Positions 14,816 through 64,000 of a stretch of DNA of 64,000 nt are shown here, piece after piece. Every line of letters begins with the position of its first letter. The stretch's first letter is position 1. Made by a program: the position numbers and the translations under genes. The notes below the pieces were generated by a model. The model was not told the origin of the DNA. It ran no database searches and saw nothing but the letters and a program-made list of their open reading frames with translations. The DNA is taken from assembly GCA_963789965.1 (NCBI GenBank), contig CAWBMO010000006.1, positions 258,651-322,650 on the forward strand, read 5' to 3'. Source of the stretch: an uncultured Acidobacteriota bacterium (GTDB lineage Bacteria; Acidobacteriota; Vicinamibacteria; Vicinamibacterales; CAVVIG01).

Positions 14816-14827
14816 TCCCGCGAAAGA

Positions 14828-29828: not shown

Positions 29829-29830
29829 AC

Positions 29831-38601: not shown

Positions 38602-38602
38602 C

Positions 38603-39296
38603 GTGCGGGTGCTCATCATCGGCGCCGGCGGGCACGGTCAGGTGGTTGCCGACATTCTCCAGTCAGCCTCGCGATACGGGAGCGACATGCAGCCTTGCGG
38701 ATACCTGGACCACAACGACGGGCTGTGGAACGAGGTGCTGCTCGACCTGCCGGTCCTGGGCTCGGTTGACGAATGTGGCAGATTCGAGCACGACACCGTC
38801 ATCGTCGGAGTCGGCGACAACATGATTCGACGAGCGCCTGTTCGAGCTAGTCTGTCGAAATGCGGCGAGCGCTTCGCGACGGCACGACATCCAAGTGCGA
38901 TTCTGTCCGCGAGCTGCATGATTCGATCAGGGCAGCGTGGTGTGTGCCGGCGTCGTCGTGAACACCGCGGCACATGTCGGGGCCAACGTGATTCTCAACA
39001 CCAGCTGCAGCGTCGATCATCACAACGAGATTGGCGATCACGCGCATATCGCGCCGGGAGCCCGGCTGGGTGGTGACGTGACGATCGGTCAGGGTGCGCT
39101 GATTGGGATCGGGGCGATCGTGCTGCCCGGCTGTCGTGTGGGAGCCTGGAGCGTCGTGGGCGCCGGGGCGGTCGTCACGGAAGACGTGGCGGACGGTGTC
39201 GTGGCAGTCGGATCTCCGGCCCGTGAAGTCGGTCGTCGAACGCGACCCAGGTCTAGGCCGACGCTCAGAGCTCGTGCGGTCTCGGTACAGCGCTAA
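38603..39296 (+). CDS. Sugar N-acetyltransferase (PglD/NeuD family), indel at ~38930
   Basis: IIGAGGHG N-domain in one frame; hexapeptide repeats with VDHHNEIGDHAHIAPG in the next frame. Confidence 0.85.
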
Positions 39297-39304
39297 CAAC
39301 AACA

Positions 39305-46431: not shown

Positions 46432-47391
46432 GTGATTAGACTCGCTGCGTTCATCATGACGCGAAACCGTCCTCAAATCTTGAAGAGGACTCTGCAGCTC
46501 TTGTTGAGCCAGACGAGGGCACCTGACTGTGTCCTCGTCGTAGACAATGGACCGTCAAAGGAGACCGAGAGTGTCGTGTCAGCGTTTTCGCCCACACTGG
46601 TCAACTATCACGCGATGAGGGAGAACGTGGGACCAGCCGGCGCGGCGGCATACGCGCTCGACCGACTCAGTCAACAGGGCTTCGAGTGGATTTATTGGGG
46701 GGACGATGATGATCCTCCGGCATCGGCTGACACGATCGAACGCCTAATAGAGATTGCAGCGAACACAGGTGAGGACACAGGCGCGGTTGGTGCAGTAGGC
46801 GGAATGTGGGATTGGGCCACGGGCGAAATACGACGAGTTCCCGACGAGGCGCTCAGCGGCCTTATTAGTGTCGACGCGATCTCGGGGAATCAGCACCTCA
46901 TTCTGCGAGCGGAGTTGGTGGCTAAAGTTGGATTGCCTGACTCTCGCCTATTCTTTGGTCTTGAAGAACTTGAATACTGCCTAAGAATCAGAGCCGCCGG
47001 CTATCGTTTGCTGGTGGACGGAGACTTGATGCGGGAGTATCGTGCGAGGTCGGGGCATTTGCGTCGGAGGCGTCGACGATCGATAGTGCCGCATTGCTCC
47101 TACGCCAGCATCTGGCGGCAGTACTATTCCACTCGGAACTACATCTTCGCGATGACGAGGACTTTCCAGCATCCCGAGCTCGCCCGACGGGAGCTGTTCA
47201 AGGCCATCGGCCGGACGTGCTTCTCCTGGGCGCGGGGGCCGAAGTACGGGTCTGCGTTTACAAGGCTGCAGATACGAGGCGTCGTCGACGGATATCTGGG
47301 GCGCATGGGACGCACGGTCATCCCCACCCCGAAGTACGGGAACGGCACGGCAACTCCCGGTCTTTTCGTGAGCAACCGGTCCGTAGGTTAA
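46432..47391 (+). CDS. Glycosyltransferase family 2
   Basis: TRNR, VVDNG, NVGPAGA, WGDDDD, YYSTRN. Confidence 0.88.
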   Translation: MIRLAAFIMTRNRPQILKRTLQLLLSQTRAPDCVLVVDNGPSKETESVVSAFSPTLVNYHAMRENVGPAGAAAYALDRLSQQGFEWIYWGDDDDPPASADTIERLIEIAANTGEDTGAVGAVGGMWDWATGEIRRVPDEALSGLISVDAISGNQHLILRAELVAKVGLPDSRLFFGLEELEYCLRIRAAGYRLLVDGDLMREYRARSGHLRRRRRRSIVPHCSYASIWRQYYSTRNYIFAMTRTFQHPELARRELFKAIGRTCFSWARGPKYGSAFTRLQIRGVVDGYLGRMGRTVIPTPKYGNGTATPGLFVSNRSVG

Positions 47392-47534
47392 TCCAAGGTT
47401 TCAGCAATTGGCCAAGCACGCCTGGTGTCGATCGAATACTGGGAACGCGAAGAGCGTCACGAAACTCATGATGGCTTGCGCGCGGTCAGGATCATCGGTG
47501 TGAACGACTTTATCTAACCATCATTGACCAATAG

Positions 47535-49341
47535 TTGTTAAGCACAAGCAGACCTTTAGCCTTGGCAAGAAGGAAGCCGGAAGCGTTGACGGCAGAGTTC
47601 GCCCTTCGAGTTGTCACTGAGGGAGAGGTTCTTGCCTTACTCAAACAAGTGGAATTCGTCTCAGCCTGGCACAACCTGGCGAACGTAGACAAGAAGTTCA
47701 CGGCAATTCAAGAACTTCCCTTTGTTGCCACCTGGTACAGAGTGTACTTTGAGCAGTACGCACCGATCCTCTGTTTGGCCTACGGCCAATCCAACGATCT
47801 GCTCGGGTTGATGCCGCTCGCGCAGCATCGGACGACGGGTGCAATCAGCCATGCTGGCGCTGGCCAGGCAGAATATCACGGCTGGATTTCGGTTCCAGAA
47901 ATTGAAGACGAGTTTCCGACAGCCTGTGTTATCGAGATCGGGCGACGTCTTCGACCGGCCGTCTGGCACTGGCGATGGCTTCCTCCCGGAGCGTCAACGC
48001 GCTGGCTCTCGTCCGAGGCGCTTGAACGAGTTGGCATCCATGTCAGATCAATCAAGCGACCAAATTGGGTGATCGATCTGCAAGATGATGAACATCTTTG
48101 CCGGATACGACAAAGATCATCGCTTAAGAACAACATTAACAAACACAAACGCACGGCTCATTTTGGTCTTGAACGAATCACCGATAAAGCTGCCACCTGC
48201 AGACTGATGGATTCTATTGCTGCCCAGTACCGATCTTCGAGCCACCGCCGTCTACGGGAGCTCAGGCTTCAGGGGAGACAAACACAAAGCGAGTTTTTTT
48301 ATAGAGCGGCAAAACTATCCGGCGGTACATCACTACTCTGTTCTGTGGTCGAATCATCATGTTCTGGCCTTTAACTTCGGAGCCTGCGATCGCAGCAGAG
48401 TGCTGCTCGGGCTATTCGCCTTCAATCCGGTCGAGGCTCGCACTTCGCCTGGAAGAATTCTCATCGTTGAATTGGCCAGGAAACTGAAGGCAGAGGGATT
48501 TCGTTATCTCGACCTCACTCCAGGGCGCCAGCTGTTTAAGGAACAATTGGCGAACAGCCACGAGGAGCTAGTCTTACCAACGTTTTACTTCTCTAAACGA
48601 GCCAGGCTTATCGCTGACTTGAAAGAGTCGACGAACACACTGGCGAAGCGCGTCCTCAGATGGGTGCGCATAGATGATCCGCACAAGAGGCAGCAGTTTG
48701 TCGATCAACTCATTGGGTTGCGCGTGAAGCTAAAACGCACGACTCCAGGGTCGGTGTGTCGTCGGCTTGCCCGAATGATCTATAGGCGGGCTGAGTATCT
48801 CTATTATGGAATCGACTGTTCAACGACGCGAGAGGATCAAGACGCACCGCAAGATTCGGAGATAGGAATTCAACGGTACGCGGACCTCTTGGCCTGTGTG
48901 GATTCAAGTCCTCGCTTGGCCAACGCGGAATTCTTGGAGCGCAGCCTCCGACGTTTCAACGCCGGTGACGTTCTATATTCGATCACGAAGAGTGGTGTGC
49001 TTGCTCATCATGGCTGGTTACAAAAGACACAGGAGGCGTCCTCGTCCGAATACTCGATGAAACTCCTGGGTCCAAAGGGCAGTGTCACGCTCGACGATTT
49101 CTACACGGTGCCGTCCTTTCGAAGGCAAGGTTTGTTTACCCGCACTCTCCAACAGATCATCCGCGATTGTGGAAAGTCCGGCGTGCCAAATGTGCTCATT
49201 GCCGTCGACAGAAACAATTGGCAAGCGAGAAATGTGATTGAGAACGTCGGTTTTTCAGTATTCCGCGGTTATAGACGAACCCAATTTCTACAATGGGTCT
49301 GGGAAAAAAGTTTTGGTCCCGAGACTGGCCCCCTCACCTAG
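47535..49341 (+). CDS. CelD/BcsL-type GNAT protein with extra C-terminal GNAT domain, indel at ~48231
   Basis: LLGLMPL...AEYHGW; SPGRILI...YLDLTPG...KEQLAN; C-terminal DFYTVPSFRRQGLF...NVIENVGF. Start may be TTG 47586. Confidence 0.72.
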
Positions 49342-49405
49342 CCGCATCGAAGTCTTGCAGGCCCGCACTCTAAGCCCCCTGTTCCCGACTCACGCGGATG
49401 ATCCG

Positions 49406-50488
49406 ATGCCAGTTTCCGGCAAGAGACTCGTGTTAGTTAGATCAGGACGGTTCTCGGGATCAGCAATCTCCCTTCGTGACGAGTTGAAGTCGAGAGTAGA
49501 GCTTGTCGATGTCGATCTCCAGAACCTCGGTTATGACCTCAAGTTGGTGTTGGGTAGGACACGCGCCATCAGCGAGGCTCGGCTGGCTGGTGGACAGATA
49601 CCGTGGGCACGGACCGCTTCATGGACAACGGCACTGGAGCGAAGATGCTCTCGACTCGGTGTCTTCGACGGGGCGACGCCCATTCTGTTCGTTCAAAGCG
49701 CAGTACCCATGCGTACTGGAGAGGGCCTCCGGTACTTCGTATACACCGATCGGGTGGGCGCCGAGGGAGTCGCCGTAGGCGGGTCTTACCGCTCCCGTCA
49801 CACGGATCGGTGGCGTGAGCTCGAGAGGCGGTTCTTACGCTCAGCTTCACGCGTGTTCGTCATGGGGCCCTCGACAAAGAAGGTGTTAAGTTCAGACGCA
49901 TACGGGCTCGATGTCGAACGAGTGCATGTTGTTGGGGCTGGCCCGAACTGTGGTCTGACTGAGGCGCGTGCCGCCGGTGGACAATGCCGCAGGGTTCTCT
50001 TCGTCGGAACTAACTGGGCAGCGAAGGGTGGGCCCGAGCTCATGGAGGCGTTCAGCCGAGTGCGGGCCGACAACCCCGAAATGGAGCTAGTCATTGTCGG
50101 CTCCGCTCCAAATGGTGCTATTCCGCCGGGCGTAAGCGTGCTCGGAACGGTTGCGCCGTCCTTGATGGACAGTGTCTATTCAGGGGCCGACGTCCTCGCC
50201 ATTCCAACTCATATGGAAGCATTTGGTATTTCGTTTGTGGAAGCGCTCCTTAAAGGGATTCCGTGCATTGGTACGAGCGTCGGGAACCAGGCCTGGATCA
50301 TTCGTGACGCTGGGATTTGCATCGAGCCCGGAAACGTCGCAGCCCTGGCGGAGGCTTTCAGAGTCATGGTTCGTGACTACTCTCGTTTCCAGAGCGCCGC
50401 CTTGACGCGGAGCGCCGTGCTTCGCGAGGAGATGAGGTGGAGCTCAGTGGCGGAGTCGATCGTCAGGCTGGCCTTGGATGAGAATTAA
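49406..50488 (+). CDS. Glycosyltransferase family 4
   Basis: LFVGTNWAAKGG; EAFGISFVEA. Confidence 0.85.
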   Translation: MPVSGKRLVLVRSGRFSGSAISLRDELKSRVELVDVDLQNLGYDLKLVLGRTRAISEARLAGGQIPWARTASWTTALERRCSRLGVFDGATPILFVQSAVPMRTGEGLRYFVYTDRVGAEGVAVGGSYRSRHTDRWRELERRFLRSASRVFVMGPSTKKVLSSDAYGLDVERVHVVGAGPNCGLTEARAAGGQCRRVLFVGTNWAAKGGPELMEAFSRVRADNPEMELVIVGSAPNGAIPPGVSVLGTVAPSLMDSVYSGADVLAIPTHMEAFGISFVEALLKGIPCIGTSVGNQAWIIRDAGICIEPGNVAALAEAFRVMVRDYSRFQSAALTRSAVLREEMRWSSVAESIVRLALDEN

Positions 50489-50621
50489 GTCCATCCGGCT
50501 CGATTTTAGGGAAGACCCGAATGACGATTGCTGACCGCATCAAGGCGTTTGCCAGAGTCACGACGCGACACCACAACTTCGATGTCGGGAGATTTTCGGT
50601 GCCCCACAGTCCACGACGAGC

Positions 50622-51374
50622 ATGATTATCGAGTTCGTCGGCCTAATGGGTGCTGGCAAGACCACGCTCCACCGACGCGCCGTACGGAGGCTCGAAGCAC
50701 TGGACCGGTCCTTCTGGACGTCGAGCCTGATCGAGGAAGGATCGAGACCCGGGCATCAGCGCGCTGTTCGCGCATTCACCAATGGGAGCCGCATCCTTTT
50801 CGCACGCCCACGTCGTTTCGCGTTCAGAGCGCTCGCGTCGTGGCGGTCGCGTGGCCTCTTTTCCATCGCCGTGTATCAGCTGCTAAAGAGCGGACGTCCC
50901 TATAGGGACCGCCTGAAAGGTTTGAGGTGGTTTCTGACAGACCTCGGAAAGCATCAGACTGCGCGCTCCAACATTTCCCCAAAACACATCGTGTTGTTCG
51001 ATGAGGGTTTGGTTCAGCGCGTGTTCAACATATTCATCCACGGTAGTGGGGAAATTGATGTCGCAGGGCTCAGAGACTACGCTCGTGTCCTCCCTCTTCC
51101 CGACGTTCTCATCTATCTCGTCGTCGATTCCGAAGTCGCAGTTAGGCGTACGCAAGCGCGGCCAAGTAGTAGCCTCTCCATGCGATTCCGAGCCTTAGAC
51201 TCTGCTCAACTGAGTAGAGTCTTCGCAGACGCCGCACGCGCCCTTGACGTGTTAGTCGGTGAGGTGCGAATCGCTGACCGTCGACGAGTGAATGTCATTG
51301 TCATCGACACCAACGATCTGGATGTGGCCAAGGCGAAATTCGATGCTCAGGTGGTTCCGCTCTTAGTTCGTTAG
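50622..51374 (+). CDS. P-loop nucleotide-kinase-like protein
   Basis: IIEFVGLMGAGKTT Walker A; LFDEG; PDVLIYL...AVRR lid. Confidence 0.7.
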   Translation: MIIEFVGLMGAGKTTLHRRAVRRLEALDRSFWTSSLIEEGSRPGHQRAVRAFTNGSRILFARPRRFAFRALASWRSRGLFSIAVYQLLKSGRPYRDRLKGLRWFLTDLGKHQTARSNISPKHIVLFDEGLVQRVFNIFIHGSGEIDVAGLRDYARVLPLPDVLIYLVVDSEVAVRRTQARPSSSLSMRFRALDSAQLSRVFADAARALDVLVGEVRIADRRRVNVIVIDTNDLDVAKAKFDAQVVPLLVR

Positions 51375-51402
51375 CGTTGAGACCCGGAGACTGGAGTAAC
51401 CA

Positions 51403-52578
51403 TTGACATCGCCTCAGCGCCTCTTTCATCTTCAACGGGTGTGCCTCAACTGGACCGCGTCTTATTTCAAGCGCCGGTTCAGGAAGGCACAAACACCTGT
51501 GCATGTTCTTTTTTGCACGACCGATCATTACGAACCCGGCACCGACAATGCGACGGCAGATTTGGAAAGAGAACGGGTTGAGGCTCTGCTGGCACGGTAT
51601 CCAGCCTTAGCAGATAGACACGAAGACGCAGCGGGCAATGTGCCCAAAAGAACCTGGTTCTTTCCACCCCACTATCACCGAAACGGTTCTTTGAAAAAAC
51701 TCGTGTCGCTCTGTGAGCGCGGTTACGGCGAGATAGAGCTGCATCTTCATCACGGAAAAAAGAAGCCAGATACGGCGGAGAACCTGCGCCGAACGCTCGA
51801 CCTGTGCGTCAAAGAGTATTCCCATTTTGGGATTTTCGGATCTGAGTCAGGACGGAAGCGCTACGCCTTCATTCACGGCGATTGGGCCCTTGACAACTCC
51901 AGAGGGGGCAAATATTGCGGCGTCGACAACGAACTGACCATCCTAAAAGAAACCGGTTGCTATGCCGACTTCACCTTTCCATCGCTGACCGAGGCCGATC
52001 CCCTACAAATGAATTCCGTATTTTACGCAAAAGACGTTCCAGAGAAAGCAAAGAGTCATAACACTGGTGCTCTGGTGCAACGCGGCGGCCATGAAAGTGA
52101 CGACCTGGTGATGATTCAGGGACCGGTATATCCCTTTGTCATGGATGCGCAGGCTGTCAAAAAGACATGTTTTAGAGTGAGAGCACTCGGTGATTCAATC
52201 AACACGAAATATAGAACGACGACGAAGAGAATAGATGCCTGGGTGAGAACGGGGATACATGTGTCTGGTAAACCCAATTGGATCATCGTAAAGACGTCAA
52301 CACACGGAGCCACCGATGCAGAGGCGGTCTTAGGGCCAGAGATGGAGCACATTTTCAGCTATTTCGAACAGCAGTACAACGATGGTGTCAATTGTGTGCT
52401 GCACTACGTGACGGCCAGAGAGCTGTACAACATGGTCAAGGCCATTGAAGCCGGAGAGTCGTGCGATGATCCTGAGGAGTACAGAAATTATAGGATCAAA
52501 CCTCCTATCTACAATGATCAGGCCCCTTACTTGGAGGCCTCTAGCGAGCTGACAAGTTTGGTTGACAATACTTACTAG
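51403..52578 (+). CDS. Hypothetical protein, His/Asp-rich, possible metal-dependent carbohydrate esterase fold
   Basis: 391-aa intact ORF; DHYEP, EIELHLHH, FIHGDWALDNS, GCYADFTFP, HYVTARE. Confidence 0.65.
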   Translation: MTSPQRLFHLQRVCLNWTASYFKRRFRKAQTPVHVLFCTTDHYEPGTDNATADLERERVEALLARYPALADRHEDAAGNVPKRTWFFPPHYHRNGSLKKLVSLCERGYGEIELHLHHGKKKPDTAENLRRTLDLCVKEYSHFGIFGSESGRKRYAFIHGDWALDNSRGGKYCGVDNELTILKETGCYADFTFPSLTEADPLQMNSVFYAKDVPEKAKSHNTGALVQRGGHESDDLVMIQGPVYPFVMDAQAVKKTCFRVRALGDSINTKYRTTTKRIDAWVRTGIHVSGKPNWIIVKTSTHGATDAEAVLGPEMEHIFSYFEQQYNDGVNCVLHYVTARELYNMVKAIEAGESCDDPEEYRNYRIKPPIYNDQAPYLEASSELTSLVDNTY

Positions 52579-52754
52579 TCACAAGAGCGCTGCTATCTGA
52601 CGACGAGCGCCTACGACATGACCACGCTGAACTTTCTCGGGAGAGCTTCCGGGTGCTCGCCGGCCTGAATAGAGAGCGATTTAGTCGACTATTCGGAACG
52701 CAACTCCCGACCCCCCGCGGAGGTTCCGCAACACCTGCTTGCCCTATTCTCACA

Positions 52755-52981
52755 CTTGATGCGACCGCCGCGAACGTCCGCATTCGCAACAAGAGTAAGA
52801 GTACCGTGAGCCGCTAGTTCATGGCGATTACGGCAGCTCAGCTCGATGCGTGACAGCCCCACACACTTGATTCGCTCCCTCTGAATGCGCTGGCCATCGA
52901 TGGCATCCAAGCCCAGAGCGCCGCATCGTCGAGGCGCTGGGCATCGATGAGACGGGCCGTAAATGCGCGCTCGCGCTTCGC
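52755..52981 (+). mobile_element. Decayed IS256-family transposase fragment
   Basis: Manual translation KSKSTVSR*FMAITAAQLDA*QPHTLDSLPLNALAIDGIQ / ERRIVEALGIDETGRKCALALR resembles the IS256 SKSAVSR...IDG...ALGIDxxGxK region; two in-frame stops and a frameshift. Confidence 0.7.
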
Positions 52982-53017
52982 CTCCCGATCACTCCGGCTC
53001 GCCATGGATGCAACACA

Positions 53018-53911
53018 GTGGACACAACCATGAATGCCTTGACACTCATAGGAAACGCCTCCAGGACTATGAATCGTGGCGTTAAGGAGGGTCTACTCAC
53101 TGCCGAATGCATCTTGAACTCAATGATGGGGACCGTACTGCAGAATAAGTTGACTGCCTATTGGATGCGCGGATATCGAAACTTTGGCGATCAAGTGACT
53201 CCTCTACTTCTTAAGAAGTACGGCTTCACTCCAGTTTATTCTTCTCCCGATCACGCAGAGGTTGTGTCAGTGGGTAGCATTCTTGAGCACGTTCCCGAGA
53301 ACTATTCAGGTTATATCTTGGGTTCAGGACTGATCCACGAACACGTCCGACAGTTTAAGAATGCTACGATTCTTGCCTTGAGAGGTGAACTAACGAGGCA
53401 AAGAACCGGTGCGTCGAAGAGCGTCGTCCTAGGTGACCCGGGATTGCTGGCTTCGAAACTGATGAATCGGCGAAAAAATAAAGTCCATGTTTTGGGTCTT
53501 GTACCGCACCGTGTCGACAGAGCAGATCCTCGGATTCTCATGATCCGGAGAAGGTACGAGAAAGATGTCCTCGTAATCGATGTCACACGAACGCCATCAG
53601 CAGTATTCGAAGATATCGACAAGTGTCAGTTCATTCTTTCATCTTCCTTGCATGGCATAGTTACTGCTGATTCTCTTGGCATCTCAAGCGCCTGGATGTC
53701 ACTATCAAATAAGGTGTCGGGGAGCGGATTTAAGTTCGCTGACTACAACTCCGCGCTAGGGTTAAGGCCAAACCCTCTCGATTTGCGTGGAAATGAGAGC
53801 CTATCAGATTTGCTCAAAAGCACTCGAACACCTCCTGAGTCTGTGGGAGAGATAAAGGAAAGGCTGCACAACATGTTCTTGTCTCTGAGGGTGACTTTGG
53901 GTGAATCGTAA
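53018..53911 (+). CDS. Polysaccharide pyruvyl transferase (ExoV-like)
   Basis: NFGD, VGSIL, LRGELT, LGDPGLL, SSSLHGIVTADS, FKFADY. True start may be downstream. Confidence 0.88.
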   Translation: MDTTMNALTLIGNASRTMNRGVKEGLLTAECILNSMMGTVLQNKLTAYWMRGYRNFGDQVTPLLLKKYGFTPVYSSPDHAEVVSVGSILEHVPENYSGYILGSGLIHEHVRQFKNATILALRGELTRQRTGASKSVVLGDPGLLASKLMNRRKNKVHVLGLVPHRVDRADPRILMIRRRYEKDVLVIDVTRTPSAVFEDIDKCQFILSSSLHGIVTADSLGISSAWMSLSNKVSGSGFKFADYNSALGLRPNPLDLRGNESLSDLLKSTRTPPESVGEIKERLHNMFLSLRVTLGES

Positions 53912-53979
53912 TTGATTACCGGGTTTCAGTCTGCCGCGCGCCGTGCTAGGTCGAGGCACCCGTTCGATCGACTTACAGG

Positions 53980-54666
53980 ATGTTCGTGTCGTTTGCGCAA
54001 GTCACAACTTTGTGGGCAGGTCATCTAGTGCGTCCTCAACCATGCGGGCGAACGATGCTGCGACACTCCTTTTCATATGTAATTCGGAGTATGCGACCGC
54101 GTTTGGGAAGAGTCCGGTCATGGGTTCGCATGCTGAGGGCCGTTGCAGGGGGAAATGACAGCCGTCGATGGGCAACCGTGAGCAACCTTTTCAGCGAGTG
54201 GGATGACCGTACGCGTCTCATCGCCAGCCTGATTCCACCCGGGAAGACGGTTCTAGAGTTCGGTGCCGGGCGGATGTTGCTGCAACGACTTCTGCCAGCC
54301 GGAACGATCTACATACCATCGGATCTGGTCGATCGAGGCCCTGGAACCGTGGTGGTCGACCTGAATACACAAGTGTATCCGAAGTTCCCGAGCCATGACA
54401 TCGCCGTGTTCGGCGGCGTACTGGAGTACGTAACCGACGTGGCGAGGCTCGTGTCCCGGTTACGTGAGGATACGTTGTCGATAATCGCCTCCTATGCCGT
54501 TGTCACCGATTCGCGGCCTCGACTCCATCTTGGTCGTCGGAAACAAGGATGGATAAACGACTTTAGCGAGAACGAGTTTGTCGAGCTCTTTGCCGCGGAA
54601 GGTTACCGTTGTGAGCGACGCATTCTGTGGGGTGACCAGGTTGTTTGCGTGTTCACTCGGCAATGA
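53980..54666 (+). CDS. Class I SAM-dependent methyltransferase
   Basis: VLEFGAG motif I; YIPSD; GVLEY. Start uncertain. Confidence 0.75.
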   Translation: MFVSFAQVTTLWAGHLVRPQPCGRTMLRHSFSYVIRSMRPRLGRVRSWVRMLRAVAGGNDSRRWATVSNLFSEWDDRTRLIASLIPPGKTVLEFGAGRMLLQRLLPAGTIYIPSDLVDRGPGTVVVDLNTQVYPKFPSHDIAVFGGVLEYVTDVARLVSRLREDTLSIIASYAVVTDSRPRLHLGRRKQGWINDFSENEFVELFAAEGYRCERRILWGDQVVCVFTRQ

Positions 54667-54860
54667 GGTCATATCTGCAGCCCCTGTAGGCCCTTATCGC
54701 GCGGCGCCCCTGATGGGAAAAAGGGGATGGCGCAAACTTTCGGCGGAAAGCCCCACAACGCGCGTGGCGCGCGCGGTCCGCGCAGTGGAGTATCGTCCAG
54801 CGTCCGGCCGTGGCCAGTCGCATGACCTCGCGGCTCTTCTCCTCTGTCAAGGTTTGAGAT

Positions 54861-55610
54861 ATGGAACCGTCTAAGATTCGGCGTATCGGATATCGACTTT
54901 GGAGCGCGCCCAGGTCGCTCCGAAACCTTGATCGAGCCCTGTTGCTGCTGGGCACGTTCAAACAGGTCGGCTGGTTCGAGTCCATGCGCCTCGGAAGACC
55001 CGTAGACAGGCGTTTAGACCCCTTGCCGTGGTTCACATATCCGGCTATCTACTGGCTTGAAACGGTTCTGAAAGGCAATGAGAGCGTCTTCGAGTACGGA
55101 TCGGGAAACTCCACTCTTTGGTTCGCACAGCGAGTGAACTCTGTGTCTGCAGTTGACCACGATGAAATTTGGGTAAAGCGGTTACAGCCGTTCGTCCCTA
55201 ACAACGTTGCTCTCAGCTACGTGCCGACCAGCGCATCTGATACCTCCATGGAGCCAAGCGATCCATATGTATCTGCGATCGCTCGCGAGCAGCATGGGTC
55301 TTACGACGTCATTGTTGTCGATGGGAAAGCCCGGAATGCGTGCTGTCATACGGCCGTTTCATACCTGCGTAAGGGAGGCATGCTGATTCTTGACAACTCA
55401 GATCGAAAGGAATACGAGCCAGCGAACAGCTTCCTCATAAGCAGAGGGTTTGCTCGGGTCGACTTCCTTGGCCCTGTTCCGGGAAATGTGGGCTGGTCGT
55501 CGACATCGGTGTACTCGCAAGACTTGACCATGTGGACCGCCAGAGCCTTGGAATTACCGATAAAGCGTACGAAGACAATACGAGACGTGGCTGGTCAGGC
55601 AGGGAAATAG
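54861..55610 (+). CDS. Class I SAM-dependent methyltransferase
   Basis: PLPWFTYPA, VFEYGSGNST, YDVIVVDG, GGMLILDNSDR. Confidence 0.82.
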   Translation: MEPSKIRRIGYRLWSAPRSLRNLDRALLLLGTFKQVGWFESMRLGRPVDRRLDPLPWFTYPAIYWLETVLKGNESVFEYGSGNSTLWFAQRVNSVSAVDHDEIWVKRLQPFVPNNVALSYVPTSASDTSMEPSDPYVSAIAREQHGSYDVIVVDGKARNACCHTAVSYLRKGGMLILDNSDRKEYEPANSFLISRGFARVDFLGPVPGNVGWSSTSVYSQDLTMWTARALELPIKRTKTIRDVAGQAGK

Positions 55611-55730: not shown

Positions 55731-58700
55731 GTGAGTACCGATAATCCGCGACTAGCGGCGTTGGTCGACTGCGAACCGCAGGAGCCGATCGCTCGTGTGC
55801 CGACCGGCAAATACGTGTTCGAGCAGCATGCGAGGGAGGAAGGTCGGGGCCACACCCTTCCGCTCTCGTTCGCACAGCAACGCCTCTGGCTCCTCGACCA
55901 GTTGGAGCCAGGCCTGGCGGTTTACAACATTGCGAGAGCGTTCCGCATAACCGGTGCGCTCGACGTCAGCGCTCTGGAGCGGGCCTTCAACGAGATCGTC
56001 CGACGGCACGAGGCGTTGCGGACGACTTTCGCCGCGGCCGGAGGACAGCCGGTTCAAGTCATCGCTCCTCATGTCGAGATACCGCTCCCGATCGTCAGCC
56101 TTCGAGAAGGCAAGGATGGGGAAGCGCAGGCGCGGCAGATCGCCTCCGAGGAGGTACGCCGGCCTTTCGACCTCGCGCGTGGCCCGCTCATGCGCGCTGT
56201 GCTCCTGCGCCTGACCGACGGCGCGCACATTCTCCTCCTCACCATCCACCATATTGTGTCCGATGGCTGGTCGATGAGCGTCTTCTTCGAGGAGATGGCG
56301 CAGTGCTACTCGGCGTTCACCGCAAGCCGCTCGTCTGCTCTGTCCGAACTGCCCATTCAATATGCCGACTTCGCGAGCTCACAGCGTGAACAGCTGCAAG
56401 GCGCGAAGTTGGACGGCCTCGTGTCTTACTGGAAGGAGCGGTTGAAGGATCTCCCAGCGAGACTCGAGCTCCCTGGCGATCGCCCGCGTCCGCAGATCGG
56501 AACTTATGGCGGGGCAACGCACACGTTCACGTTCGACCGAAGACTAACTTCAGATCTGAAAGCGTTCAGCCGACGGGAGAGTGTCACGCTGTTCATGACA
56601 CTGCTCGCCGGGTTTCAGACGCTGCTGTACCGCTGGGCCGGGGTCGAAGACGTCGTCGTCGGCGCGCCGATTGCTGGCCGCCCATCGGTCGAAACCGAGC
56701 GCCTGATAGGATTCTTCGTCAACACACTCGTCCTGCGCACTTCGCTCGTTGGGGATCCGACGGTGCGTGAGCTGCTGGCCCGCGTGCGGGAAACCGCGCT
56801 TGGCGCATACGTCCATCAGGATCTTCCCTTCGAGCATTTGGTCGAGCTGCTGCGGCCAGAAAGAAGTCGGACCCAGACGCCACTGTTCCAGGTGATGTTC
56901 GTGCTGCAGAATGTCCCTCGACGGGAATTCACCCTTCCAGGTCTGACTCTCACCTCCGAGCACGTTGATACCGGTACGGCCAAATTCGACCTGACCGTGG
57001 CCCTGGCTGAAACGCCGGAGGGACTGACCGGACGAATCGAATACAACACTGATATCTTCGAGGTCCGCACGATCGAGCGACTGGAAAGACACTTTCTGGC
57101 CCTCCTGGCGGGAATGGTTGACGGCCCAGAGCGTCGCGTCTCGACACTAGAGCTCCTGACGCCGGGAGAGCGGCGCGAGCTTCTGTTCGACTGGAACGAC
57201 ACGGCCACCGAGTACCCAAGAGAGTCGTGCCTGCACCAGCTATTCGAGCGGCAGGTGGAACGAGCGCCGGGCGCCGTGGCGGTCGTCGACGGCGGACAGG
57301 CCTTGACCTATTGCGAGCTGAACAGAGGTGCGAACCAGTTGGCGCACCGACTGCAGGCTGTGGGCGTGGGCCCAGGCAGTCTCGTGGCGATCTGCGTCGA
57401 TCGATCGGCCTCCCTCATCGTCGGGCTCCTGGCGATTCTCAAAGCCGGCGGCGGCTACGTGCCGCTTGATCCCCGTTACCCGCGGGAGCGTCTCACTCTA
57501 ATGATGGCAGACGCACGCGTACGCGTGCTCCTGACGGACACCCGCCTCAGCGACTGTCTGCCGGTGCCAGATGGCGTACTGAGACTCCTGCTCGATCAGA
57601 TGGACGACGGATCGAACGAGCGCGACGGAGATCCCCTCAGTCTGGTGACCGCCGAAGACGCCGCATGCGTCATATACACGTCCGGATCGACCGGCCGCCC
57701 CAAAGGCGTCGTTGTCCCGCACCGGGCCGTCACGCGGCTGGTGATCAACACAAACTACATCAGCCTGCACTCCTCTGATGTTGTTGCCCAGGCGGCAAGC
57801 GCCTCGTTTGATGCGGCCACCTTCGAAATCTGGGGAGCTTTGCTGCACGGCGCGCGGCTTGTGCTCATTCCGGAGCACGTCGTCATTTCGCCGACGGATC
57901 TTGCCACCGAGCTGGCCCGCACGCGGATTACGGTTCTTTTCCTCACGACAGCCGTGTTTAACATGGTCGGCCGTGAATGCCCCACGGCCTTCAACACGCT
58001 CACAGATCTGCTCGTCGGCGGCGAAGTCATCGACCCCACATCGGCCGCGGCGGTGTTGACAAACGGTGGCCCGCAACGGTTACTCAACGTCTACGGGCCG
58101 ACTGAAACCACCACGTTCGCCTCGTGGCACCAGATCACCGAGGCTCCAGACGGTGAACGCCCCGTTCCGATCGGGCGGCCACTGGCCAACACACGGCTGT
58201 ACGTACTGGATCGCCATCTCCAGCCGGTACCAATTGGCACGCCCGGAGAGATCTATATCGGCGGCGATGCCCTCTCGAGTGGTTATCTGAACGACCCTGA
58301 TCTCACCTCCCAGCGGTTTATTAGCGACCCATTTAGCACCGCACTGGCTGCGCGTTTGTACAAAACCGGCGACATGGGACGGTTTCTTGCAAATGGCAAC
58401 ATCGAGTTCTTGGGACGCCGCGACCATCAGATCAAGATTCGGGGCTTTCGCGTCGAGCCCGGTGAGATTCAGAGCACTCTTGATGCCAGTCCGCTGGTTC
58501 GCGAAAGCCTGGTGGTTGCCCGGGAAGATCGTTCAGGGAATAGACGCCTGGTCGCCTACATCGTGCCAGCGAAAGCTCATTCAGAACTGATCGTCAAGCT
58601 CCGGGCGTTTGCGCGCGAAAGACTTCCGGAGCACATGGTTCCCTCTGCGTGGGTCCTGCTGGAGCATCTGCCGCTCACCATCAACGGCAAGCTGGACCGG

Positions 58701-59816
58701 GCAGCGCTGCCCGCGCCGGATGGGGCATTCGTCACTGTCACTCCCGATCGGCCGCCTCGCGATGCTCTGGAGCTGAATCTCACGAACCTCTGGGAAGACC
58801 TTCTCGGGCAGCATCCTATCGGCATGTCGGCCAACTTCTTCGAGCTGGGAGGCCACTCGCTGCTCGCGGCTCGCTTGTGTGCGTCAATTGAGCAGGCCTT
58901 TGGGACGAAGCTTCCTCTTGCCACGTTTTTCCAGGCGGCAACGATCGAGCAGCAGGCCGAACTGCTCCGACGTGAAAGCAAAGACGAGGTGTGGCCTTCA
59001 TTAGTGCCGATCCGCGCCGGCAGGGGCAAACCCCCGTTGTTTTGTGTTCACGGTGTAGGTGGCAACATCCTGACCTATCGGGACCTCGCGCGATACTTGC
59101 CGTCAGATCAGCCGGTGTATTGTCTTCAGGCCTGCGGTCTCGACGGCAAGGCCCCGATCCACAGGCGAATCGAAGACATGGCGGGCCACTACGTAGCGCA
59201 GGCCCGGCAGGTGCAGCCTCATGGGCCGTACGCAATCGCAGGCATGTCTTTCGGCGGCGTCGTGGCATTCGAAATGGCTCGCCAGCTCGAGGAGCAGGGA
59301 CAACGGGTTGCCTTACTCGCGTTGTTCGACTCGCGGGCGCCCAAGCTGCAGACCTGGCTTCGGCGCAAGGCGTCTGAGTACGGATTACGAGCTTCTTTTC
59401 ACGCGAGGCATCTCGTATCGGGACCGGACCGCCGACGTTACATTTTCAGCGAGCTGAGAACGATACAGCGTCGGTTCGCGAATCGATTCTGGCAGATGGG
59501 TTTCCGTTGGCACGGGGCCGGACGTTCGCTGCCTCGCGCCCTGGAGGATGTCCGGCACGTCAACACGAACGCACTGAGCAGGTATCGGCCGCAAGCGTAC
59601 CGGGGCCGTGTCACGCTCTTCAGAGCCAGTGAGCGCTCCGCCGAGGCGACGAGCGATCCAGGGAAGGGGTGGGGCCCGTTGGCTATGGGCGGTGTCGAGA
59701 TCTTAGACGTGCCCGGTGGCCACCGCAGCCTGGTCTTGGAGCCTCACGTGAGAACACTTGCCAGAGAGCTCGCGCGTTGTCTCGACAAAGCATGGGAGCG
59801 AGAGAGTATCGAATGA
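55731..59816 (+). CDS. Single-module NRPS, C-A-PCP-TE
   Basis: C: LSFAQQRLW, HHIVSDG. A: YTSGSTGRPKG, NVYGPTE, YKTGD, NGKLDR. PCP: FFELGGHSL. TE: GMSFG, PGGH. Confidence 0.96.
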   Translation: MSTDNPRLAALVDCEPQEPIARVPTGKYVFEQHAREEGRGHTLPLSFAQQRLWLLDQLEPGLAVYNIARAFRITGALDVSALERAFNEIVRRHEALRTTFAAAGGQPVQVIAPHVEIPLPIVSLREGKDGEAQARQIASEEVRRPFDLARGPLMRAVLLRLTDGAHILLLTIHHIVSDGWSMSVFFEEMAQCYSAFTASRSSALSELPIQYADFASSQREQLQGAKLDGLVSYWKERLKDLPARLELPGDRPRPQIGTYGGATHTFTFDRRLTSDLKAFSRRESVTLFMTLLAGFQTLLYRWAGVEDVVVGAPIAGRPSVETERLIGFFVNTLVLRTSLVGDPTVRELLARVRETALGAYVHQDLPFEHLVELLRPERSRTQTPLFQVMFVLQNVPRREFTLPGLTLTSEHVDTGTAKFDLTVALAETPEGLTGRIEYNTDIFEVRTIERLERHFLALLAGMVDGPERRVSTLELLTPGERRELLFDWNDTATEYPRESCLHQLFERQVERAPGAVAVVDGGQALTYCELNRGANQLAHRLQAVGVGPGSLVAICVDRSASLIVGLLAILKAGGGYVPLDPRYPRERLTLMMADARVRVLLTDTRLSDCLPVPDGVLRLLLDQMDDGSNERDGDPLSLVTAEDAACVIYTSGSTGRPKGVVVPHRAVTRLVINTNYISLHSSDVVAQAASASFDAATFEIWGALLHGARLVLIPEHVVISPTDLATELARTRITVLFLTTAVFNMVGRECPTAFNTLTDLLVGGEVIDPTSAAAVLTNGGPQRLLNVYGPTETTTFASWHQITEAPDGERPVPIGRPLANTRLYVLDRHLQPVPIGTPGEIYIGGDALSSGYLNDPDLTSQRFISDPFSTALAARLYKTGDMGRFLANGNIEFLGRRDHQIKIRGFRVEPGEIQSTLDASPLVRESLVVAREDRSGNRRLVAYIVPAKAHSELIVKLRAFARERLPEHMVPSAWVLLEHLPLTINGKLDRAALPAPDGAFVTVTPDRPPRDALELNLTNLWEDLLGQHPIGMSANFFELGGHSLLAARLCASIEQAFGTKLPLATFFQAATIEQQAELLRRESKDEVWPSLVPIRAGRGKPPLFCVHGVGGNILTYRDLARYLPSDQPVYCLQACGLDGKAPIHRRIEDMAGHYVAQARQVQPHGPYAIAGMSFGGVVAFEMARQLEEQGQRVALLALFDSRAPKLQTWLRRKASEYGLRASFHARHLVSGPDRRRYIFSELRTIQRRFANRFWQMGFRWHGAGRSLPRALEDVRHVNTNALSRYRPQAYRGRVTLFRASERSAEATSDPGKGWGPLAMGGVEILDVPGGHRSLVLEPHVRTLARELARCLDKAWERESIE

Positions 59817-60523
59817 GGCTCGCGCCGGATGAGGTTCACATTTGGTATCGGCTGACCGAATCACTTGGGGATTCCGCCCTCGCCGCAGCCCGATCGGTAC
59901 TGTCTTCTGAGGAGTGGTCGCGACACGACAGGTTGCAGTTTGCTCACGATCGGCGTGACTACGCGGCTGCCCACGCGCTGCTCCGGACCTCGCTCTCCCG
60001 CTACGCGGACGTCGCTGCTCACGCGTGGACGTTCGACCTGGACGCACACGGGAAGCCAAAGCTGTCGGATCGGTGTGAAGCGGGTTTGGCGCTGACGTTC
60101 AGTCTGTCACATGCACGAGGGATCGTGGCATGCGCCATCGCTCCCGGTCCGGACATTGGAGTCGACGTCGAGCGTACCGATCCCGCCGTCGATTGGTCAC
60201 CTGTTATCGAGCGATATTTCACCCGTGCTGAACTCGTGCAACTCGATCGCTGTCGTCCGTCAGAGCGTGCAGGTCGCTTCGCTATGTTGTGGACGCTGAA
60301 GGAAGCGCACGTCAAGGCAACTGGGCTGGGTCTTTCGGAGTCATTGGCCAATATCGGATTCGATGTGAACGGCGATCGGATTCGCTTCCTCCCGCCGGCG
60401 AATATCAACGCCGAAGCGTGGCAGTTTGCGTCGTTTGCGCCGGCACCGCCCTACTGGATCGGCGCCGCGATCGCACGTCGTAGCATTGAAATGTGGAAGG
60501 TCACCTCGTATTTGGAGTCCTGA
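59813..60523 (+). CDS. 4'-phosphopantetheinyl transferase (Sfp type)
   Basis: HGKP, FSLSH, IGVDVE, WTLKEA; ATGA overlap with the NRPS stop. Confidence 0.93.
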   Translation: MRLAPDEVHIWYRLTESLGDSALAAARSVLSSEEWSRHDRLQFAHDRRDYAAAHALLRTSLSRYADVAAHAWTFDLDAHGKPKLSDRCEAGLALTFSLSHARGIVACAIAPGPDIGVDVERTDPAVDWSPVIERYFTRAELVQLDRCRPSERAGRFAMLWTLKEAHVKATGLGLSESLANIGFDVNGDRIRFLPPANINAEAWQFASFAPAPPYWIGAAIARRSIEMWKVTSYLES

Positions 60524-60524
60524 T

Positions 60525-62396
60525 ATGAACGGAGCTACGCACCTTCCAGCGCAAAGCATCGCCCAACGGCTTGACGACCAGGCACGCCTCACGCCTGAGG
60601 CGTTCGCGATTCTCGCCCTCAACCAGGCACCGCTGGCCTATGAACACCTGTACGCCCATATTCAAGAAGCCGTCCTGACACTGCGCTCACTCGGCATAGA
60701 GCGCAATGACCCGGTTGCAATCAACCTACCCAACGGGCCCGAGATGGCCGTGGCTTTCCTTGGAGTCGCGAGTGGAGCCACTGCTGCTCCTCTGAACCCA
60801 GCCTATCGCGCCCCGGAACTTGAGGCTTGTCTCATCGACATGCAAGCCAAGGCGTTGATCGTACAGGCCGGTGTTGATTCACCGGCAAGGGCTGTTGCCC
60901 GGGCGCGCGGTATCCCTATACTTGAGCTTTATTCGCGACCAGGCACCAGAGCGAGTCTATTCACGTTCACCGGGGAACGGCCGGTGGGCCTGAAGCATCC
61001 CGAGTTTGCCCGGGCCGACGATGTGGCCCTGCTCTTGTCTACTTCTGGCACCACCTCTCGGCCGAAGCTGGTGCCCCTGACCCATACCAATCTTCTTCAA
61101 TCCGCACGGAACATTCAGACGACGCTCGCGCTCACGCAGAGCGACCGTTGCCTCAACGTGATGCCGCTCTTTCATATTCACGGTCTCGTTGGTGCGTTGC
61201 TTTCCTCGCTTGCAGCGGGAGCCAGCGTGGTCTGCACGCCTGATCTTCAGCTCCCGCAATTCTTTGCGTGGCTTGAAGAATTTTCACCGACTTGGTACAC
61301 CGGCGTCCCAACCATGCATCGGGCGGTTCTGTCATCTGCGCGGGCTCAAGGTCTGGATTTGCGACGTACCCGTTCGCTGAGGTTCATCCGCTCGTCATCT
61401 GCGCCCTTGCCGCGACACGTGATGCGTGAGCTGGAACAAGCCTTTGATGTTCCCGTGCTCGAGGCCTACGGAATGACTGAGGCTTCCCATCAGATATGCA
61501 GCAATCCTCCGCCACCGCAGTTGCGGAAGGAAGGCTCGGTGGGCTTGGCCGCCGGAACAGAGGTCTCTATCATGGACGGCCACGGCGACCTCCGGGCTTC
61601 CGGAGAAGTCGGGGAGGTCGTGATTCGCGGCGCCAATGTTATGTCGGGATATGCCGCCAATCCTGGCGCAAATGAACGTTCCTTCTCTCACGGCTGGTTC
61701 AGGACAGGCGATCAAGGCTACCTGGACAACGATGGCTACCTGTTCATCGTCGGAAGGCTCAAGGAAATCATCAACCGCGGCGGGGAAAAGATCTCGCCCT
61801 CTGAAGTCGACCAGGTCCTGCTGGATCACCCAGCGATCGCGGAAGCCACTGCCTTCGCCGTCACGCATGCAACGCTTGGCGAAGATGTTGCCGCTGCGGT
61901 CGTCTTGAAAACAGAATCGCATACCAACGAACAGGAACTTCAAGCCTTTGTCACCGCCCGGCTCGCAGAATGCAAGGTTCCTCGCCGGATCATCATCGTC
62001 GATCACATTCCACGAGGGGTCACCGGCAAGGTTCAGCGCGCTGGTTTGGCAGAAGTATTTGCGGAAGCACTCCGAGTGGACCTTGTGGCCCCGACGAATG
62101 CCTTCGAGGCAGCCGTGGCGAGCATCTACAGCGAAGTATTGGGCATCCCCACAGTCGGTCGCGATGACAACTTCTTCCTGCTCGGAGGTGACTCGCTGCG
62201 TGGTACCCAAGTACTCTCACGCGTCCGTGCGGTTTTTCAAGTCAACCTTTCCATCGCGACGATCTTCCGAAAATCGACCGTGGCGGGTCTCGCGGACGAA
62301 ATCGCCCAGTCCCTCGAAGTGTCCGACGGCGTTGAGGCAACCGATCATGCCTGTTCTCTCCCCGGATTGCCTGACTCGTCTTACCGGCCCGCGTGA
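60525..62396 (+). CDS. Acyl-AMP ligase of oxalate-CoA ligase (AAE3)/Fum10-like type fused to a carrier protein
   Basis: AAPLNPAY, TSGTTSRPK, MPLFHIHGL, WYTGVPTMH, LRFIRSSSAPL, EAYGMTEASHQ, INRGGEKISP; C-terminal FFLLGGDSL PCP. Confidence 0.88.
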   Translation: MNGATHLPAQSIAQRLDDQARLTPEAFAILALNQAPLAYEHLYAHIQEAVLTLRSLGIERNDPVAINLPNGPEMAVAFLGVASGATAAPLNPAYRAPELEACLIDMQAKALIVQAGVDSPARAVARARGIPILELYSRPGTRASLFTFTGERPVGLKHPEFARADDVALLLSTSGTTSRPKLVPLTHTNLLQSARNIQTTLALTQSDRCLNVMPLFHIHGLVGALLSSLAAGASVVCTPDLQLPQFFAWLEEFSPTWYTGVPTMHRAVLSSARAQGLDLRRTRSLRFIRSSSAPLPRHVMRELEQAFDVPVLEAYGMTEASHQICSNPPPPQLRKEGSVGLAAGTEVSIMDGHGDLRASGEVGEVVIRGANVMSGYAANPGANERSFSHGWFRTGDQGYLDNDGYLFIVGRLKEIINRGGEKISPSEVDQVLLDHPAIAEATAFAVTHATLGEDVAAAVVLKTESHTNEQELQAFVTARLAECKVPRRIIIVDHIPRGVTGKVQRAGLAEVFAEALRVDLVAPTNAFEAAVASIYSEVLGIPTVGRDDNFFLLGGDSLRGTQVLSRVRAVFQVNLSIATIFRKSTVAGLADEIAQSLEVSDGVEATDHACSLPGLPDSSYRPA

Positions 62397-63793
62397 ACGC
62401 ATCATCCCATGGAAGAATAGACGACGGATTGGCTCCGTTGTCTCCTGCTCAACAACGACTGTGGTTGCTCGCTCAGTCGAAACCGAGCAGCCCTGTTTAC
62501 AACGTCTACAGGGCTTGGCATTTGAGTGGCGGTCTCAATGTTGAAGCTTTGCAGAGGTCGATCGACACAATCGTGGCACGCCATGCCGTGTTGCGTTCAA
62601 CCTTCGAGGTCGTGGACGGACATCCGATTCAGGTAGCCGCGCCGGCCTTGAGCATTCAGGTGCCAGTCGTTGACCTTCGACTGTGCTCGGCAGCCGAGCA
62701 GCACGCAGCAAGTGAGCGGATTGCACTGAGGGAGGCAAAGCGGCCCTTCGACCTGACCGAAGGGCCATTGTTTCGAGCGACACTGTTGCGCTTAGGTGAC
62801 AACGAGCACGTCCTCCTTCTCAGTTCGCACCACATCGTGATGGATGGCTGGTCGATGGGAGTGTTCAATCGAGAATTAGCGGCGCTCTATGGCGCCTTTA
62901 TTGTCAACAGGTCGTCCCCACTGCCTGATTTGCCGATGCAGTATCGCGACTACGCCCTTTGGCAGCGTGAGCAATCACAGCGCGACATGCTGGGATCACA
63001 ACTTCGCTACTGGAAGGCGCAGCTCGCAGGTTTGACTGCACTGGCGTTGCCGGCGGACAGGTTGCGGCCACCGGCAAGGAGTTACAAAGGTGCTCGCGAA
63101 ACCTTCCAGGTGTCAGCGGAGGCCGCGACGCAACTCAAGGTCCTTGGCCAACAGCATGGCGCCACGCTGTTCATGACCCTGTTGGCAGCGGTTAACGTCC
63201 TGTTCCACCGCTGCACGGGGCAGAGCGACATCGTTGTCGGCTCTCCCGTGGCCAATCGCACCACGCCAGAGCTCGAGCCCATGATTGGACTGGTTGTTAA
63301 CGCCTTGGTACTGCGAACCGATATGTCTGGCAACCCCACATTCCGCGAAGTGATGGCGAGAGTGCGCGAAGTGTGCCTGGGAGCCTACGCCCATCAGGAC
63401 GTGCCGTTCGAAAAGCTGGTTGAGGAAATGCAACTGACGCCAGACACGCGCCACAATCCGCTGTTCCAAGTGGCATTCACATTACACAATACTCCTGATC
63501 AGGCTCCGACGCTGACCGGCATGAGGACGACTCCATTCGCGACCGGCAGCGTCAGTCCATTTGACAGAGGCAATGACACCGCCAAGTTTGATCTGACTGT
63601 TTCCATGATCGAGACTGGTGGCGTGATCAAGGGTCTCTTGGAGTACAGCACGGATCTGTTTGACCGCGCGACTATTCAGCGGATGGCCGGTCACTTTCGG
63701 ACCTTGCTGCACAGCATTGCAGCCAACCCGGCTCAGCGACTCGCGGATTTTACGCCGTTGACGGAGACCATTGTGGGCACTCATGACACCTGA
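62393..63793 (+). CDS. Stand-alone NRPS condensation domain
   Basis: LSPAQQRLW, RHAVLRSTF, HHIVMDG, HQDVPFE, AKFDL; ends right after the C domain. Confidence 0.92.
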   Translation: MNASSHGRIDDGLAPLSPAQQRLWLLAQSKPSSPVYNVYRAWHLSGGLNVEALQRSIDTIVARHAVLRSTFEVVDGHPIQVAAPALSIQVPVVDLRLCSAAEQHAASERIALREAKRPFDLTEGPLFRATLLRLGDNEHVLLLSSHHIVMDGWSMGVFNRELAALYGAFIVNRSSPLPDLPMQYRDYALWQREQSQRDMLGSQLRYWKAQLAGLTALALPADRLRPPARSYKGARETFQVSAEAATQLKVLGQQHGATLFMTLLAAVNVLFHRCTGQSDIVVGSPVANRTTPELEPMIGLVVNALVLRTDMSGNPTFREVMARVREVCLGAYAHQDVPFEKLVEEMQLTPDTRHNPLFQVAFTLHNTPDQAPTLTGMRTTPFATGSVSPFDRGNDTAKFDLTVSMIETGGVIKGLLEYSTDLFDRATIQRMAGHFRTLLHSIAANPAQRLADFTPLTETIVGTHDT

Positions 63794-64000
63794 TTTCCCG
63801 CCCGGGAACCGTATGACCGACAGTGCCGACCGTACCGGCGCACTCTTGCCGGCGAACCCTGATTTGCTGAGGCCCGAGCTCGTACGAGAGGTGATCGATG
63901 GTCACGCATTGGTCGCGCGCTGCCTGAAGGAGCTGGGCGTTACGCATGTATATGGCGTGTCGGGAACGCCCGTTCGCGAAACGTTCGCCTCTTGCTTTCA
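63783..64000 (+). CDS. ThDP-dependent enzyme N-terminus (Oxc / 2-hydroxyacyl-CoA lyase-like), partial
   Basis: Not in the ORF track. Manual translation from ATG 63783: MTPDFPPGNRMTD...EVIDGHALVARCLKELGVTHVYGVSGTPVRETFASCF, open to the window end; resembles the TPP_enzyme_N start. Confidence 0.7.
   Translation, partial: MTPDFPPGNRMTDSADRTGALLPANPDLLRPELVREVIDGHALVARCLKELGVTHVYGVSGTPVRETFASCF

Follow-up and report, generated by a model that had tools for sequence, protein, structure and literature searches.

A one-module nonribosomal peptide synthetase resident in a surface-glycan locus of an uncultured Acidobacteriota bacterium, followed by a portable starter cassette with a Gln51 ThDP enzyme

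We analysed a 64,000-nucleotide stretch of DNA (G000:C6:258651-322650; hereafter, the window) from an uncultured Acidobacteriota bacterium whose assembly is 76.5% complete, and find that a surface-glycan locus within it includes a one-module nonribosomal peptide synthetase (NRPS) of condensation (C), adenylation (A), peptidyl carrier (PCP or T) and thioesterase (TE) domains, together with a phosphopantetheinyl transferase (PPTase). Behind these genes lies a second module, a portable NRPS starter cassette comprising an A domain fused to a PCP (A-PCP), a free C domain and a thiamine diphosphate (ThDP) enzyme with glutamine at the position of the catalytic glutamate (Q51). All five genes are genuine and intact, and profiles of Pfam and NCBIfam run on the 45 window proteins agree with the gene content and domain order first described, but the genes form two modules:

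55731..59816, + strand: NRPS, C-A-PCP-TE (Pfam/NCBIfam)
59813..60523, + strand: Sfp/HetI-type PPTase (Pfam/NCBIfam), 50-59% identical to PPTases ending orthologous loci
60525..62396, + strand: AAE3 (oxalyl-CoA-synthetase-like) A domain fused to a PCP, with equivalents of Ser289, His319 and Lys500 kept
62393..63793, + strand: stand-alone C domain with HHxxxDG intact, the likely C partner of the A-PCP/ThDP cassette
63783..64000, + strand: 5' part of the gene for a ThDP enzyme of the HACL/OXC group; the gene ends at 65519, past the window, and its Gln51 codon is at 64032

The NRPS gene starts 120 nt after the last methyltransferase gene of the glycan locus, on the same strand, in keeping with the ~120 bp given in the initial annotation. 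The junctions described there are borne out in three cases (an ATGA overlap, a 1-nt gap and a GTGA overlap); at the fourth, the C and ThDP genes share an 11-nt overlap (ATG at 63783) or are separated by a 19-nt gap (ATG at 63813) rather than meeting in a 4-nt overlap. Scans for promoters and terminators gave chance-level results. The glycan locus itself, which lies upstream, consists of the following parts:

24405..44212, + strand: conserved core with genes for an outer-membrane barrel, wza, wzc, a GNAT protein, a deacetylase and four GT4 glycosyltransferases, and also pglC/D/E/F-like genes and an O-antigen-ligase-like gene
44232..46383, + strand: wzm and wzt, the latter with a C-terminal carbohydrate-binding domain; the marker of the orthologous locus family
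46432..55610, + strand: variable tailoring region with genes for a GT2, a GNAT protein, a GT4, a kinase-like protein, a pyruvyl transferase, two methyltransferases and two unknown proteins

Relatives were sought in 401 genomes of the order, starting from the NRPS, its TE and the PPTase and, in reverse, from Wzt. The NRPS query led to genome G147, and the TE and PPTase queries led to G025, G136 and G041; all four share the locus core (~50-85% identity) and a flank of ASPIC and propeller genes, with the contig of G136 starting after wzt and retaining the same locus end and flank. The reverse search recovered four further Wzt orthologues (73-78% identity), three of which (G147, G025 and G041) belong to loci that end with A-T-TE and PPTase genes; the contig of the fourth, G158, stops 235 nt past wzt. 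By comparison, none of 37 other wzt loci has any A, PCP, C, TE, PPTase or ThDP match (loci on long contigs chosen from 101 rows and searched over 20 kb downstream only; positive controls were detected in five of five cases). Because three of the four Wzt-orthologue loci end in this way and none of the 37 others do, we conclude that the C-A-T-TE and PPTase module belongs to this glycan locus. Its residence there is stable across four relatives once G136 is added, these loci being kin.

The relatives also reveal which parts of the module are kept. Past wzt, after a 31-nt spacer, G147 has A-PCP, C-A-T-TE and PPTase genes and nothing more; the free C and the ThDP gene are absent, the amino-acid code differs (DAIVLGGTM) and the loader lacks His319. 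In G025, G136 and G041 there is only one A-T-TE, whose A domain is different and not of the amino-acid type, and in G025 and G041 the start of this gene overlaps a GT2 gene. Identity to the G000 protein is 66-72% for T and 50-58% for TE across the relatives, and for A is 71% in G147 or 34-36% in the other three. In a quick tree of 44 rows, from which the TEs of L010, L011, L013 and L015 were left out, the T-TE regions of the five loci form one clade (99% SH-aLRT; 5 of 44 rows). The T-TE is thus fixed as one clade while the A domains are swapped. The relatives carry a separate second PPTase, and a URO-D-family gene follows the PPTase in G025 (L176:17943-18998) and, at the same place, in G136 and G041; G000 and G147 lack it. 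Another glycan locus, unrelated to this one (L185-L186, in G334:C4 at ~700-724 kb), has pglF, pglC, AsnB-like, NadE-like and A-T-TE genes, along with a carbamoyltransferase-like gene and additional fragments of A domains and carriers.

The window NRPS has the features of a termination module, with HHxxxDG in C, Asp235 and Lys517 in A, the PCP serine and a TE triad. Across the NRPS and the starter cassette, the catalytic motifs are intact (HHIVSDG and HHIVMDG in the C domains, LGGHS and LGGDS in the PCPs, GMSFG with Asp and His in the TE). The A-domain code, DAFFLGVTF(K), predicts Ile or Val, and DAFFLGVTF has been tied to Ile, with Val tolerated (PMC2533009, PMC13122637). The protein is 65-67% identical to the NRPS that the orthologous G147 locus encodes.

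The starter cassette opens with the A-PCP, whose best matches in the PDB are oxalyl-CoA synthetases (E ~1e-114; the next class reaches 1e-77). Its RSSSA, YGMTEASH and TGK motifs align with AtAAE3 and supply the pocket residues Ser289, His319 and Lys500, the first two of which are described as specific to oxalyl-CoA synthetases (PMC8905533). The C-terminal PCP with LGGDS sets the protein apart from enzymes that pass oxalate to coenzyme A as stand-alone ligases, and we predict that it loads oxalate. The window genes fit neither of two other ligase classes: the DltA score lies far below the equivalog cut-off (TIGR01734, 246.9 against 559.85 bits), with no MBOAT (DltB) or DltD protein annotated among the 45 window proteins, and the exosortase-A-associated acyl-CoA ligase profile TIGR03098, with a cut-off of 592.35 bits, gives 206.7 and 220.6. 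Fusions of such an A domain to a PCP are widespread. Two plasmid A-PCP loci have no glycan genes within 10 kb, and plasmid matches to the ThDP enzyme are of the Glu51 (E51) type or distant only. One homologue, P0243, is fused to a hexapeptide-repeat acyltransferase domain.

The ThDP enzyme is nearest in sequence to HACS (E 2e-107), with glyoxylate carboligase more distant (E 3e-46). Its structure model (pLDDT 84) finds OXC/HACL enzymes as the nearest Foldseek neighbours (TM ~0.86-0.88, 31-36% identity), consistent with the three-domain fold of that group, and the GD-x24-27-N motif for ThDP and Mg is present (GDAA...NN). Under the motif numbering of PMC3534367, which gives Glu at position 51 in 94% of the superfamily and Val in 3% (glyoxylate carboligase), the enzyme reads N50-Q51-Q52-A-G-V-M-M-A58. 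The glutamine recurs in 119 of 119 homologues among the matches listed (59-83% identity), which also keep the ThDP-binding GD...NN motif, and in a quick tree the Q51 enzymes form one clade beside OXC (100% SH-aLRT; 16 of 43 rows). A housekeeping Oxc was considered and rejected, given this separate clade, the glutamine, and scores below the equivalog cut-offs (TIGR03254, 338.9 against 739.4 bits; NF006721, 369.7 against 557). No fusion of the ThDP enzyme to a PCP occurs among the longer homologues, which is weak evidence.

Loader and ThDP enzyme travel together. A search from the ThDP side covered 162 genomes, and 39 of its 53 match rows were examined as loci; an oxalate-type A-PCP precedes the ThDP gene in all seven Q51 loci, and none of the 32 E51 loci has an A-PCP. 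Three of the seven were already known from the loader search (and in the query alignment), and four are new from the ThDP side. A C domain comes next in six of the seven, where the following gene begins with an NRPS C domain. In L195, a 1.7-kb metagenome contig, an 84% identical loader runs straight into the ThDP gene without a free C. Indirect evidence comes from contig sizes: 11 of the 119 Q51 homologues lie on contigs of exactly the same size as contigs of the 119 loader homologues, where ~1 would be expected by chance (maximum 6 in 20,000 jitters). From these observations, A-PCP, free C and Q51 ThDP enzyme constitute a portable NRPS starter cassette. Searches of 400 genomes from the order, 200 from the phylum and viral contigs found no relative of the Q51 clade. 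GC content at third codon positions (GC3) is 0.64-0.66 in the G000 cassette, 0.72 in the NRPS and 0.72-0.78 in the locus core; the low value, with the missing relatives, fits a later arrival of the cassette. GC3 is also reduced in the variable tailoring region (46432..55610). At L378 (G595:C5:344-6041), an A-PCP and a Q51 ThDP gene, with NRPS genes absent, precede an apparent flavin oxidoreductase (start sequence only).

We somewhat favour a reading in which the two modules jointly build an N-acyl-Ile/Val unit that the TE transfers to the surface glycan, a destination suggested by gene context. The PPTase, judging from its family, would prime both carriers. The AAE3-like domain would then adenylate oxalate and load its own PCP, in line with the pocket residues seen, and the ThDP enzyme, whose gene is coupled to the cassette, would decarboxylate oxalyl-S-PCP by the chemistry of the OXC/HACL group. 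For CoA esters in that group, both decarboxylation and one-carbon (C1) extension with aldehydes are known (PMC7154664, PMC8760513). By analogy, protonation of the resulting carbanion to give formyl-S-PCP is about an even prospect; its reaction with a cellular aldehyde to give a 2-hydroxyacyl-S-PCP is possible though less probable, and another catalytic role, or none, is less probable still. Formyl-ACP is used in lactacystin, made there by the folate route (PMC11730586). One of the two C domains may then join the acyl group to Ile/Val-S-PCP, a reaction predicted from the A-domain code, and the TE may move the unit onto a sugar hydroxyl or amine ahead of Wzm/Wzt export. Relatives would retain T-TE-PPTase and exchange the adenylation front end, much as serotype regions exchange tailoring genes. 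More tentatively, the Q51 clade as a whole could act on carrier-bound oxalate and so provide a folate-independent C1 starter for NRPSs, with the product here being a TE-installed acyl-Ile, a swappable serotype mark and possibly a terminal cap read by the Wzt binding domain.

Several observations weigh against this proposal. The five linked loci are related, four of them from one genus, so the linkage may be a single inherited insertion, the pattern of one lineage rather than an independent repetition. In G158 the locus core is present, but a PPTase of this type was not found in the assembly, and the flank gene is missing too. The initial annotation had proposed counting how often A-PCP, C and ThDP cassettes neighbour glycan genes, and mostly they do not: glycan genes lie within 10 kb at four of 31 other A-PCP fusion loci (G147, G187, L013 and L015; several loci have short flanks, and the trehalose-synthase-like glycosyltransferase of L196 is excluded from the count) and, in the flanking DNA available, near none of the seven other A-PCP and Q51-ThDP cassettes; the cassette occurs in ordinary NRPS clusters. 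Loaders with both Ser289 and His319 stand beside glycan genes at only one of 18 other loci, and His319 is missing from the glycan-linked loaders of G147, L013 and L015. The idea that the module may serve the glycan is partly supported, by the residence of the C-A-T-TE/PPTase part in the locus family but not by the starter cassette, mostly unlinked elsewhere. Q51 could entail low activity, given that 94% of the superfamily keep Glu51 (PMC3534367). An oxalate source of the PEP-mutase/OAH family was not found in the 76.5% complete assembly. A pglD gene is present in the locus, so the bacillosamine 4-amine may already be acetylated. The best solved relatives of the TE are ordinary NRPS TEs, and the scheme needs one C domain where the genes supply two.

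The ICL/PEP-mutase family includes oxaloacetate acetylhydrolase. A gene of this family lies at L008:11921-12799, between an oxalate-type A-PCP and a C-A(Val-type code)-T-TE with a PPTase, and the L008 cluster is a candidate self-contained pathway for N-oxalyl-valine.

Among the alternatives, the strongest, although we consider it doubtful, is that TE hydrolysis sets free a small N-acyl amino acid, which would be formyl-, oxalyl- or 2-hydroxyacyl-Ile/Val, the genes merely riding in a recombination-prone region. The same starter cassette does head conventional NRPS clusters without glycan genes (L009, L010, L011, G596 and G747), and the kinship of the linked loci and the ordinary character of the TE are as this alternative would have them. 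The region downstream is, moreover, a patchwork: on the same strand follow genes for a Kdo/RIO-like kinase and two methyltransferases and fragments of A-T-TE, TctB, GT2 and RmlC-like genes, beyond which ASPIC and propeller genes lie on the opposite strand. The kinase, methyltransferases and GT2 remnants, coming after the module, place it inside the tailoring region rather than at its end. Against this alternative, T-TE-PPTase is kept at one position while the surrounding A domains, glycosyltransferases and methyltransferases turn over, in relatives the module starts coupled to wzt or GT2, and the other 37 wzt loci attract no such genes. Nor does the neighbourhood resemble a multi-module cluster for a free metabolite: the initial annotation saw no siderophore receptor or exporter, and neither is annotated across the window and the 11 kb beyond it, where only a TctB fragment occurs. 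Reading on past the window, as it had advised, brought neither a multi-module peptide cluster nor an exporter, and the whole assembly yielded only two C domains, that of the NRPS and the free C.

A recently inserted, non-functional or decaying cassette with a catalytically dead Q51 enzyme is improbable. Internally deleted remnants of a second A-T-TE, TctB, GT2 and RmlC-like gene do lie 3-5 kb downstream, the GC3 of the cassette is below that of the locus core, and no oxalate source was found in the assembly. All five frames and their motifs are intact, however, and Q51 and the ThDP-binding motif GD...NN are conserved across the whole clade, which argues for selection. The remnants (L001:13040-15560, or 68040-70560 in window numbering) comprise an A-T-TE split into three rearranged pieces, a membrane gene resembling TctB, a GT2 without its start and a stub of an RmlC-like gene. 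The A-T-TE fragments match the type found in G025, G136 and G041 at 49-68%, no telling repeats are seen at the remnant junctions, and either decay or assembly collapse would account for them. Among sequencing runs no RNA holder is listed, and four DNA runs yielded just short contigs in scattered places.

In Fum10/Fum14-type esterification, a C domain acts on a non-peptide acceptor. We think it improbable, to the same degree, that the free C here likewise transfers the oxalate-derived acyl group straight to a sugar, independently of the C-A-T-TE and leaving the glycan with two separate substituents. In its favour, the NRPS has its own C domain, so the free C is left spare, P0243 joins a homologous A-PCP to an acyltransferase domain, and oxalate-type A-T-TE genes occur among glycosyltransferase genes (L013) or adjoin sugar-nucleotide genes (G187). 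Against it, the free C is 48% identical to the C domain of the adjoining NRPS and shares 44-50% identity with ordinary NRPS C domains, among them the ones fused behind oxalate-type A-PCP loaders (P0276, L196), which it resembles, and an NRPS C domain starts the next gene in six of seven other Q51 cassettes, so that the Fum14-like role raised in the initial annotation finds no support.

Other features of the locus stand apart from this argument. Three LuxR-type regulator genes in tandem head it (window 22007-24418), against one or two in relatives. In a comparison with G041, G025 and G147, the segment bounded by the LuxR and propeller genes (window 22007 to L001:18533) proves inverted with respect to the APH-to-glmS block. 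On the - strand at 4733-20637, in divergent orientation to the glycan locus, lie genes for four secreted-type proteins of very large size, which have numerous Ig-like repeats as well as LamG and DUF11 domains and are possible substrates of the O-antigen-ligase-like gene product. Two conserved locus genes (window 51403-52578 and 29783-31105) are without a Pfam family; the former is assigned no family by Atlas and matches unnamed clusters mostly from Acidobacteriota. The pglD-like and DegT-like genes (window 38603-40437) have one and two frameshifts, respectively, where G041 and G025 have intact copies. The shifts are likely assembly errors and were not used as signs of decay, since single shifts likewise break genes in the relatives' assemblies.

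The G000 system is not a member of the Dlt, Oxc or TIGR03098 loci, and its likeness to known systems is partial. With the oxalyl-CoA synthetases (AtAAE3, LsOCS, yeast Pcs60; PDB 5ie0, 6qjz, 8aff) it shares the equivalents of His214, His216, Ser289, Met314, His319 and Lys500, as these are described for that family, but its ligase is fused to a PCP among NRPS genes, so the predicted acceptor thiol is the carrier arm rather than CoA. OXC/HACL enzymes (HACS; PDB 8vzj, 6xn8, 2q27, 7ayg) are closest in sequence and fold and have the ThDP-binding motif in common, whereas the Q51 enzymes form a separate clade coupled to A-PCP loaders, not beside frc/oxlT. DltA/DltC and the V. cholerae O1 wbeK-O genes carry out carrier-protein-dependent acylation. 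In the O-polysaccharide locus of F. psychrophilum (wfpC-G), an ACP-dependent acyl group has been predicted (PMC6519341), and the likeness would lie in an acyl unit built on a phosphopantetheinyl carrier encoded in the glycan locus, as predicted here. Those systems use free ACPs with fatty-acid-synthase-type enzymes, or a ligase with a PglD-like or membrane transferase, in contrast to the genuine NRPS module here, in which C and TE domains accompany A domains that can be swapped. Glyoxylate carboligase is the only family named as lacking Glu51 in PMC3534367; it has Val, unlike the Gln of the G000 enzyme, which is distant in sequence and has a predicted carrier-bound substrate. A TE that releases its product onto a sugar is known from Pks13, which acts on trehalose (PMC9210659), but Pks13 is a type I polyketide synthase with a long-chain product, and its similarity to the G000 TE is generic (E 2e-15). 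The C. difficile type B flagellin locus encodes, beside glycosyltransferases, a peptidylamido-glycan with an amino-acid-containing substituent, using FemAB-like, ATP-grasp and ornithine-cyclodeaminase-like genes unlike the G000 NRPS; it was considered as an NRPS precedent and set aside, no NRPS term having been found in PMC5207246. The open literature yielded no description of the cassette under the themes of oxalyl- or formyl-carriers, NRPS with wzm/wzt, or amino-sugar acylation, and it may be in print in subscription papers or supplements, which lay outside that scope.

If the proposal is right, NRPS starter chemistry would proceed from oxalate through a ThDP clade without the canonical glutamate, a second natural bypass of Glu51 besides glyoxylate carboligase, in the very enzyme group, OXC/HACL, that serves one-carbon biocatalysis; the small size of the A-PCP/ThDP pair would allow direct assay. 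A glycan locus that exchanges its adenylation modules while T-TE-PPTase stays fixed would cast NRPSs as serotype-tailoring enzymes. It would also account for a class of orphan NRPSs with a single module, which are filed as metabolite clusters in genome mining.

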